A stretch of DNA of 64,000 bases. Source: Clostridia bacterium. GTDB lineage: Bacteria; Bacillota; Clostridia; UMGS1883; UMGS1540. Location: assembly GCA_045656005.1 (NCBI GenBank), contig JAZOQG010000003.1:2226-66225 (forward strand), written 5' to 3'. The translations under genes and the position numbers were made by a program. Below, in pieces: positions 53,361-54,154 of this stretch (within the stretch, counting starts at the first letter, position 1; each line of letters starts with the position of its first letter). Below the pieces are notes generated by a model, which worked only from the letters and a program-made list of their open reading frames with translations, was not told where the DNA came from and did not search any database.

Positions 53361-53437
<77 letters not shown>

Positions 53438-53440
53438 AAG

Positions 53441-53474
53441 TAAAAAGAGAACACCGTAGGGTGTTCTCTTTTTG
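53441..53474 (+). terminator. Terminator, copy A of a duplicated roughly 45-nt terminator block
   Basis: aaaaagagaacacc-gtag-ggtgttctcttttt, then gctttaaatgt. Confidence 0.6.
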
Positions 53475-53626
53475 CTTTAAATGTGAGAGCTGGAACTGAA
53501 TTTGTGATTATGGGGTTATGAGACCGACAGTCGGGCGAATAACTTGATTTACCACCGAGCGCTCGCAGTGCGAGATAAAGCGAGGCGGGAAATGTGCAGA
53601 GGTCAAAATCTTTGATTTTGGGCACC

Positions 53627-53655
53627 TCAAGGTGTGGTCGTTGGTTCAAATACAA
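53627..53655 (+). pseudogene. tRNA 3'-half fragment (duplicate of the tRNA-fMet T-arm region)
   Basis: aaggtgtggtcgttggttcaaatacaac matches aaggtcgttggttcaaatccggcc of the adjacent tRNA-fMet. No complete cloverleaf upstream. Confidence 0.45.
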
Positions 53656-53706: not shown

Positions 53707-53735
53707 TTGCAATTTTCTTTGAATAGTGATATACT
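53707..53735 (+). promoter_or_regulatory. Sigma-A promoter TTGCAA-17-TATACT driving a structured leader
   Basis: ttgcaa 53707-53712, 17-nt spacer, tatact 53730-53735. Confidence 0.5.
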
Positions 53736-53739
53736 AAAA

Positions 53740-53905
53740 TTGCGACATGATTTGAAAGTATCCACATATATACCACAAGTGTGTATTTTTTACCAATTTG
53801 GTAAAAATGCATGCTCTATTTTCGCATACTTGTGGTTTGTGGGAAATTGTGTCGCAACAATTGGAGTTATGCATTTTTCGTGCGTGGCTTCGGTTGCGCA
53901 CTTTT
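53740..53905 (+). promoter_or_regulatory. Riboswitch-like structured leader: nested long-range helices plus an intrinsic terminator upstream of an RBS and small ORF
   Basis: P1 ttgcgaca (53740-53747) pairs with tgtcgcaa (53848-53855). P2 ccacaagt (53773-53780) pairs with acttgtgg (53827-53834). Internal hairpin tttttacc-aa/tt-tggtaaaaa. Terminator gtgcgtggc-ttcg-gttgcgcac + ttttt (53879-53905). Confidence 0.5.
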
Positions 53906-53926
53906 TATTTATAGGGGAGAAGTATT

Positions 53927-54090
53927 ATGCCTGATTGCAAAAATATGTATCTCAATTTATTCCGTTCGGTTACTGATGCAATTGAAATATTGTCTGATGC
54001 TCAGAAAAAAGCGGAAGAAACTTTTATTAATTCTTCCAAAGAAGAGGAAGAATTAATAAAAAACATAAAGATAATCAAGCCAAAAGAATG
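53927..54090 (+). CDS. Small hydrophilic protein (54 aa) of unknown function
   Basis: RBS AGGGGAGAAG 6 nt upstream of ATG 53927. TGA at 54088-54090 is immediately followed by a terminator. Not in the ORF track (<60 aa). Confidence 0.45.
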
Positions 54091-54091
54091 A

Positions 54092-54125
54092 AAGAACACC
54101 ATGGGGTGTTCTTTTTTTACTTTAA
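54092..54125 (+). terminator. Terminator, copy B (near-duplicate of 53441-53474)
   Basis: aaagaacacc-atgg-ggtgttcttttttt, then actttaaatgt. About 85% identical to copy A, flanks included. Confidence 0.6.
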
Positions 54126-54154
54126 ATGTACAGTTTTCATGGTGTGGAAGTTGG

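Follow-up and report, generated by a model that had tools for sequence, protein, structure and literature searches.

The 64,000-nucleotide (nt) stretch of Clostridia bacterium DNA considered here (contig JAZOQG010000003.1, positions 2,226 to 66,225; hereafter the window) carries at 53707-53906 what is probably, judging from sequence, a self-contained promoter-leader-terminator cassette acting in cis as a transcription attenuator and representing an uncatalogued RNA family. Together with the gene that follows, the unit extends over 53707-54119 and comprises an extended -10 promoter, a structured leader of ~165 nt, an intrinsic terminator, a ribosome-binding site (RBS), a 54-aa open reading frame (ORF) and a second terminator. 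Its predicted core is a chain of alternative pairings, 1:2 / 2:3 / 3:4, in which 1 is a segment named box X, 2 is its complement box X', and 3 and 4 are the two halves of the terminator stem (T5' and T3'). The helix formed by X and X', a pairing absent from the initial annotation of this DNA, would thus be an anti-antiterminator.

The evidence comes largely from homologues, which were sampled as the more than 120 metagenome stretches listed for a strict 22-base pattern anchored on the end of X' and the terminator, leaving 80 representatives at <90% identity. Two alignments were used, A3 with 47 diverse copies and A5, a 91-sequence model alignment, and a covariance model of 164 positions (R1) was built from A3. 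Covariation was compared with 500 shuffles per helix and with a partner-slide control in which the 3' strand was shifted by 1-3 columns, while the energies of the terminator and anti-terminator states were obtained by constrained folding of 88 copies. With R1 the window copy obtains 138 bits (E = 9e-26, 53740-53908); the model finds no second significant copy in the 64 kb of the window and recovers ~120 copies in the fetched loci, the best at 158 bits. The features of the window copy are the following.

53707-53735 (+): sigma-A type promoter, TTGCAA at 53707-53712, 17-nt spacer, TATACT at 53730-53735
53740-53857 (+): P1, long imperfect 5'-terminal hairpin (fold z = -7.4, covariation)
53741-53753 / 53844-53856 (+): P1a, covarying in A5
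53773-53784 / 53824-53835 (+): P1c, covarying in A5
53786-53807 (+): P2, small apical hairpin, UUUUUUACC (53786-53794) with GGUAAAAA (53800-53807)
53801-53817 (+): box X, GUAAAAAUGCAUGCUCU, in the apical region of P1; 5' strand of X:X'
53818-53823 (+): J, U-rich joiner leading from X to the 3' strand of P1c, AUUUUC
53857-53862 (+): linker from P1 to X', ACAAUU (consensus in the family GCAAUC); contributes the outer part of the anti-terminator
53863-53879 (+): box X', GGAGUUAUGCAUUUUUC, directly 5' of the terminator; pairs with X or with the 5' arm and loop of the terminator
53858-53896 (+): putative anti-terminator hairpin, 53858-53874 with 53880-53896, which excludes the terminator
53880-53906 (+): intrinsic terminator, stem 53880-53901 (GUGCGUGGC-UUCG-GUUGCGCAC), T5 at 53902-53906
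53914-53919 (+): RBS, GGGGAG, 7 nt before the ATG
53927-54091 (+): 54-aa ORF of the 'MPDYK...' small-protein family
54090-54119 (+): second intrinsic terminator, closing the monocistronic cassette

Helices of the leader and their predicted competition

The outer parts of the cassette had already been recognised in the initial annotation, and they are recovered here with little change. The promoter stands as TTGCAA-17-TATACT and has in addition an extended -10 TG at 53727-53728 (TGaTATACT), for a 9/12 match to the consensus plus TG. The terminator, a GC-rich 9-bp stem with a C(UUCG)G loop lying between the promoter and the RBS, agrees within 1-2 nt in its stem, UUCG loop and T5, and the RBS, the 54-aa ORF and the closing terminator, found at 54090-54115, are all as described. 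Terminator-like sites in the region number 8 where 0.7 +/- 0.9 would be expected. The RNA between promoter and RBS is exceptionally stable for its composition: 53736-53912 has a minimum free energy (MFE) of -64.9 kcal/mol (z = -7.4), whereas 200 dinucleotide shuffles average -37.4 +/- 3.7 and none of them (0/200) is as stable.

Across the family the -10 hexamer is present in 84 of 87 copies and the extended TG in 69, and the hexamer ends exactly 4 nt upstream of model position 1 in 68 copies. This fixed offset indicates that the promoter belongs to the conserved cassette and that the transcript starts at the base of P1. At the other end, an RBS with an ORF of at least 35 aa follows within 150 nt of the T-tract in 103 of 110 distinct units (94%), at a median distance of 21 nt. 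An ORF so close to the T-tract leaves no room for a separate promoter, which argues that it is transcribed solely by read-through.

The two nested long-range helices proposed earlier, TTGCGACA (53740-53747) with TGTCGCAA (53848-53855) and CCACAAGT (53773-53780) with ACTTGTGG (53827-53834), are both present, but they are not separate elements: the first belongs to P1a, at the base of the single hairpin P1, and the second to P1c, in its upper part. The compensatory changes by which both helices could be checked are found in A5 at every pair, double-sided substitutions occurring in 13/13 pairs of P1a and 8/8 of P1c with scores reached by 0/500 shuffles; at pair 14-226, for example, the alignment has AU 29, UA 27, CG 13 and GC 12 times. 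Between P1a and P1c the middle arms (P1b) vary in sequence across the family, to the point that both arms are wholly different between the window and the metagenome contig L001 yet complementary within each. Most members also have an asymmetric internal loop in which AAUA(U) of the 5' strand faces GA(A) of the 3' strand. A kink-turn at this loop was considered and rejected, the long side being on the wrong strand and the tandem G-A after a 3-nt bulge missing, as was a tertiary pairing of AAUAU with the joiner UAUUUU, which is without covariation signal.

Also conserved and unpaired is AAUAU / TAATAT at consensus positions 15-20, ~12-18 nt into the transcript and -10-like on the non-template strand, from which the window copy deviates (GAAAGU at 53754-53759). 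This motif may signal a sigma-dependent pause close to the promoter, or it may serve as a structural loop.

At the apex of P1 sits P2, in which 92-93% of cells are paired (pair 66-164 in the 91-sequence alignment: AU 48, GC 14, GU 7) and which masks the A5 part of box X; the strand 5' of P2 can pair further along X, less well (74% paired). Box X and box X' themselves form a helix of 15-16 pairs over a span of ~60 nt, ~91% paired and with double-sided changes at 8 pairs in A5, a pairing that was not part of the covariance model R1. At pair 165-256 the counts are GC 74, AU 12 and GU 2 with zero unpaired, and an additional pair, 156-263, has GC 70 and AU 11. The duplex of X' with the native inner segment is worth -16.5 kcal/mol compared with -9.1 for shuffled sequence. 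In A3 as in A5, P1a, P1c, X:X' and P2 all covary, with values matched by 0/500 shuffles; sliding the 3' partner by 1-3 columns lowers pairing from 93% to 30-57%, and 30 pairs in total show changes on both sides. The non-Watson-Crick combinations are informative as well: P1 has 172 G-U against 36 A-C, and X:X' has 157 against 26, an excess of ~5:1 which points to selection on the plus-strand RNA rather than on a DNA repeat. The joiners around these helices hardly vary: among 88 copies, a length of 6 nt is found for J in 76 and for the linker in 61.

X' carries a conserved AUG, and leader-peptide attenuation from it was examined and discarded on the grounds that the Shine-Dalgarno (SD)-AUG spacing is 2 nt and that the frame shifts with an extra G.

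What makes X:X' of interest is that its 3' strand has a second potential partner. X' and the linker can also base-pair with the terminator, matching its 5' arm, its loop and a portion of its 3' arm, and the resulting anti-terminator (AT) is the MFE structure in the window, where P1+AT has -64.8 and P1 with the terminator (P1+T) -57.4 kcal/mol. Among the 88 constrained copies the balance is nearly even, AT being the MFE state in 41 and T in 37, with a mean AT-T difference of 2.8 kcal/mol. The anti-terminator is 87.5-87.7% paired across the family, although its terminator side is fixed by the search pattern; similarly, the terminator is conserved in position in a sample that was anchored on the terminator sequence. 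Variation in the linker tracks that of the terminator, ACAAUU occurring with GGUUGC and ACAGUU with GGCUGC (pair 242-280: GC 16, AU 7). The region had been taken for a transcription-attenuating riboswitch or RNA-binding-protein leader. Attenuation is supported by the terminator, the covarying helices and the competing anti-terminator, but a small-molecule riboswitch in the strict sense is not, the downstream genes being without a metabolic theme.

Family, distribution and downstream genes

The leader could not be matched to a known aptamer when it was first described, and an Infernal search of Rfam 15 bears this out. No family matches inside 53736-53905, whether at the gathering score or even at E <= 10, and none overlaps the leaders of eight other loci at E <= 0.1; the families covered include TPP, SAM, purine, c-di-GMP-I/II, ydaO, glycine, ykkC, T-box, PyrR, Gut-1 and Clostridiales-1. 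Full-text literature searches did not find the family either. In 200 of the 408 supplement files of a human-microbiome survey of structured RNAs (Fremin & Bhatt 2021) the sequence strings are absent, and the family may sit unnamed in a bulk catalogue.

The homologous loci that would be expected of a genuine element are numerous and keep the leader. Copies were found at L001, L004 and L008-L010 and in the metagenome stretches mentioned above, almost all as full-length homologues; many of the metagenome copies are labelled human gut and others come from other metagenome contigs. L001 matches the window at ~95% identity in the promoter, in the apex of the hairpin and throughout the 3' portion of the leader, whereas L004, a Clostridia metagenome-assembled genome found by a protein-pattern scan of GTDB genomes, has a diverged leader. 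Units may occur in tandem (L167 with 3, L096, L105, L178, L078 and L177). At L167, a chromosomal site, three promoter-leader-terminator units follow rpoC and precede a Cys-rich ORF of 88 aa. Two further copies, L147:4294-4458 and L172:944-1109, are deletion variants in which the promoter abuts P2/X, the P1 5' arm is missing and the XRE ORF downstream is shortened to 38 aa; both are probably in decay.

Genes for integrases or recombinases often lie close to the leader, and some copies occupy chromosomal sites. With blastn against GenBank phages, the leader alone was found in two unverified human-faecal 'Bacteriophage sp.' scaffolds, where the genes that follow it encode a lipoprotein and a zinc-ribbon protein. 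In IMG/VR, a terminator-pattern scan returned one viral contig only and the 64 matches to the apical pattern GGTAAAANNNNNNCTCTATTTT were all false, which suggests that the family is not mainly in recognised viral contigs. The idea of a 'prophage moron' was accordingly dropped after these scans and replaced by that of an 'accessory or integrative-element gene'. A blastn search of a plasmid database in distant mode gave no match to the leader. A miniature inverted-repeat transposable element or other mobile repeat was likewise rejected, as conservation runs past the repeats to the promoter, X' and the terminator, and the element always points in the same direction as the ORF behind it.

The genes behind the leader are diverse, and include BspA-type leucine-rich repeat surface proteins, Ricin-type lectins, XRE regulators, zinc-ribbon membrane proteins, lipoproteins (one Ltp-type), M23/CHAP hydrolases, SHOCT/TM2 proteins, Cys-rich peptides and the MPDYK family. 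A census of the downstream genes with PADLOC and PHROGs gave generic XRE and peptidase matches only. The 54-aa ORF of the window is thus one of many gene types found in this position. An initial search with the protein gave two relatives, one of them on L001, and the protein-pattern scan of GTDB genomes six more distant ones; at E <= 1e-3 the family has at least 910 relatives of 45-60 aa, all unnamed or 'hypothetical', and no Pfam domain. Its consensus is MPDYKxMYxxLFNSVTDAIEILxxAQxKAEExYI, and an AlphaFold 2 (AF2) model with a helix over residues 4-50 (predicted local distance difference test, pLDDT, 86.9) predicts a single long alpha-helix. The leader recurs before members of this family at L001, L004 and L077, and at least 10 over-called MPDYK-family proteins carry a translated leader signature, which indicates that the leader-MPDYK module recurs. 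Several other genomes have the MPDYK ORF divergent from an XRE-type helix-turn-helix gene, without the long leader.

Other associations were noted in passing. A small Cys-rich protein family with the motif ...GNGxxGFECCCDECDxxLxCFPE... is recurrent after the leader, often behind 2-3 tandem units (L167:4436-4699 on the minus strand, L102, L105, L130, L149, L168, L185, L081, L107, L127, L134 and L179). An island at L154:1107-5056 combines a leader-lipoprotein cassette with a tyrosine integrase, a 449-aa unknown protein and a WYL-domain protein, and may be of defence type. In L118 a Gut-1 RNA (RF01706, 54.3 bits, above gathering) lies at 1905-1980 on the plus strand between two leader copies, with a weaker Gut-1 match on the opposite strand at 2024-2114.

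Proposed mechanism, rival explanations and known systems

In the mechanism that we propose, transcription would begin at the base of P1, and box X would be carried in the apical region of this hairpin. When X' pairs with X, the GC-rich UUCG hairpin with its U-tract would be left free and transcription would terminate before the RBS; when X' pairs with the 5' half of the terminator, RNA polymerase would read into the downstream gene, which in the window encodes the putative single-helix protein. P2 and P1 would provide an extra layer controlling the availability of X. As X is partly masked by P2 and held at the tip of P1, the outcome would hinge on how available it is when X' emerges. From this arrangement we infer that the two states interchange in vivo and that their balance is set by an effector acting in trans. 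Candidates for this effector are a small molecule or second messenger, a protein and a related RNA, and its target would be the conserved apical or internal-loop region. Roughly speaking, a small ligand and a protein seem equally possible, a purely kinetic device without effector slightly less so, and an RNA acting in trans unlikely.

Several points weigh against this proposal. The downstream genes are heterogeneous, with no common pathway or metabolic theme that would point to a ligand. The tandem copies at L167, L096, L178 and L105 include units without an ORF, each with its own promoter, so the short RNA may have an independent role as well. Energetically, the state combining X:X' with the terminator is ~19 kcal/mol worse without P1, and yet full-length P1 and X:X' look sterically incompatible, because both joiners measure 6 nt and keep that length as P1 ranges across the family from 33 to 52 bp; X:X' would either coexist with a bent P1 as a pseudoknot or require P1 to open. 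Finally, the metagenome sample is biased, since it was anchored on the terminator sequence.

Other explanations account for part of these data. The leader might be a small-molecule or second-messenger riboswitch of a new class, the P1 loop, the apical junction and an X:X' pseudoknot forming the aptamer and ligand binding favouring X:X' and hence the OFF state. It does have the conserved structured domain with covariation that a riboswitch would have and a classic expression platform, and the tightly fixed joiners together with the conserved AAUA/GA loop suggest a defined three-dimensional fold. The heterogeneous regulon, rich in surface proteins, cell-wall hydrolases and adhesin-like proteins, also fits, given that the c-di-GMP (cyclic di-GMP) and c-di-AMP (cyclic di-AMP) riboswitch regulons in Firmicutes resemble such a surface-rich gene set. 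The known c-di-GMP-I/II and ydaO c-di-AMP riboswitches resemble the leader in controlling a mixed set of surface, cell-wall and mobile-element genes, in being present many times per genome and in using terminator platforms; unlike them, the leader has no covariance-model match and no recognisable aptamer core. More seriously, nearly all its conserved nucleotides are explained by the alternative pairings, so few remain unpaired for a pocket, P1 varies in length by a full helical turn with constant joiners, tandem units each have a promoter and the genes suggest no ligand; we regard a riboswitch as a tentative possibility. A stand-alone small RNA (sRNA) gene, in which X or X' acts in trans on the X' of sister leaders or on SD/AUG-like sequences and the ORFs are reached by leaky read-through, is unlikely. 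Tandem units with promoter and terminator and without ORF are an arrangement typical of multi-copy sRNA families, and X is complementary to the GGAG..AUG in X', the two covarying unit by unit (L167 unit 1 versus 2 and 3). However, such a gene would not need an anti-terminator conserved over its terminator, nor would it explain why an RBS and ORF follow so closely after nearly all units with no room for a promoter. A dual role, as leader and sRNA, is possible.

Two further readings were considered. The cassette might be unregulated, its 5'-terminal hairpin stabilising the mRNA and a leaky terminator setting a constant low read-through, with the alternative pairings as by-products of the repeats. 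A stable hairpin at the 5' end is a known mRNA-stabilising arrangement, the transcript does start at the base of a very stable one, and the spread among unrelated genes is what a portable module would show. Covariation of X:X' over ~60 nt and the complementarity of X' to the terminator would not be kept without function, though, and a near balance in energy between AT and T is characteristic of a switch, which makes this reading a distinctly unlikely one. Least probable by far, and in our view hardly credible, is a DNA inversion in which the 13-bp arms of P1a serve as recombinase repeats and a flip of ~100 bp removes X, abolishing termination and producing phase variation. The layout of promoter, inverted repeat (IR)-flanked segment, terminator, RBS and surface or accessory gene in Clostridia mirrors cwpV (PMC2784873), the flip would lower the complementarity to X' from -16.5 to -10.8 kcal/mol, near the shuffled -9.1, and tyrosine or serine recombinase genes lie near ~30 loci. 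Yet the apical segment is flipped in 0 of 118 full-length assembled copies, the excess of G-U over A-C reflects selection on an RNA strand rather than repeat identity in DNA, the nearby recombinases look like element integrases with none near the window copy, and the repeats are short. The invertible switches of Clostridioides difficile, cwpV and flgB (PMC2784873; PMC5386303), are thus alike in being clostridial and in having a promoter upstream of an IR-flanked segment that decides terminator action before a surface-protein gene, but they differ from the leader, whose repeats behave as an RNA helix and to which no dedicated invertase appears to be linked.

The attenuator with terminator, anti-terminator and anti-antiterminator, which we favour, is a mechanism known in kind. 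The competition between X:X', X':T5' and T5':T3' resembles that in the B. subtilis pyr leader with PyrR, in transcriptional riboswitches of the OFF type and in the B. subtilis infC-L20 leader, which has a long-range helix (PMC1865079). These systems are further alike in having a sigma-A promoter, a terminator directly before the RBS and a long-range helix in the decision. Unlike the pyr/infC-L20 class, the leader has no Rfam similarity, holds its anti-antiterminator strand in the apex of a 33-52 bp hairpin, has the promoter within the module and tandem units, and regulates accessory or mobile-element genes. There is also some likeness to countertranscript attenuation at plasmid rep genes (pT181, pIP501), in which a complementary RNA shifts the nascent leader from a pre-emptor or anti-terminator to the terminator. 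Specificity segments there are hypervariable yet complementary, with conserved flanks, but X lies on the same transcript and the plasmid search did not find the leader. Countertranscript control was itself rejected after a consensus scan found no promoter-like site on the minus strand of 53736-53905. It is therefore the family and its architecture that appear new, the distinguishing points being the long 5'-terminal hairpin presenting the anti-antiterminator strand, the promoter in the module, the tandem units and the regulon of accessory genes.

Known families of regulatory RNA give poor coverage of gut Clostridia, and the leader would define a new regulon, probably with a new signal or RNA-binding regulator, in organisms of the human gut. 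Surface proteins, cell-wall hydrolases, XRE regulators and hundreds of small proteins without a name are encoded behind it, and at least 900 uncharacterised proteins of 45-60 aa, predicted as single helices, are linked through it to a specific control element. It would be a directly testable switch system and, for clostridial synthetic biology, a compact and portable promoter-attenuator module. More ambitiously, and rather doubtfully, it might be a new class of sensor for a second messenger or global signal, or a network of leaders titrating one another in trans, that coordinates a mobile regulon of gut Clostridia; if true, this regulon would be large and horizontally mobile, with surface, cell-wall and small-protein genes.

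tRNA-adjacent repeats around the cassette

The only real Rfam match near the leader is an initiator-type tRNA-Met at 53361-53437. The terminator region that follows this tRNA-fMet (53435-53484) is repeated after the 54-aa ORF (54080-54129), the two 50-nt copies being 82% identical and 645 nt apart. Between them lie fragments resembling tRNA anticodon arms and T-arms, at 53500-53528 (-), 53530-53543 and 53636-53651 (+), together with a 69-nt stretch that is 71% complementary in inverted orientation; the 16-nt tRNA-like fragment GGTCGTTGGTTCAAAT is 100% identical. The repeats look like att-site remnants of integrations at the tRNA gene, with the leader-ORF cassette as leftover cargo. tRNA genes also adjoin the cassette in L001 and L004, and in the latter two tRNA genes and a SAM-I riboswitch (L004:578-748 and 908-1181) lie ~1.6-2.2 kb upstream of the leader-MPDY cassette.

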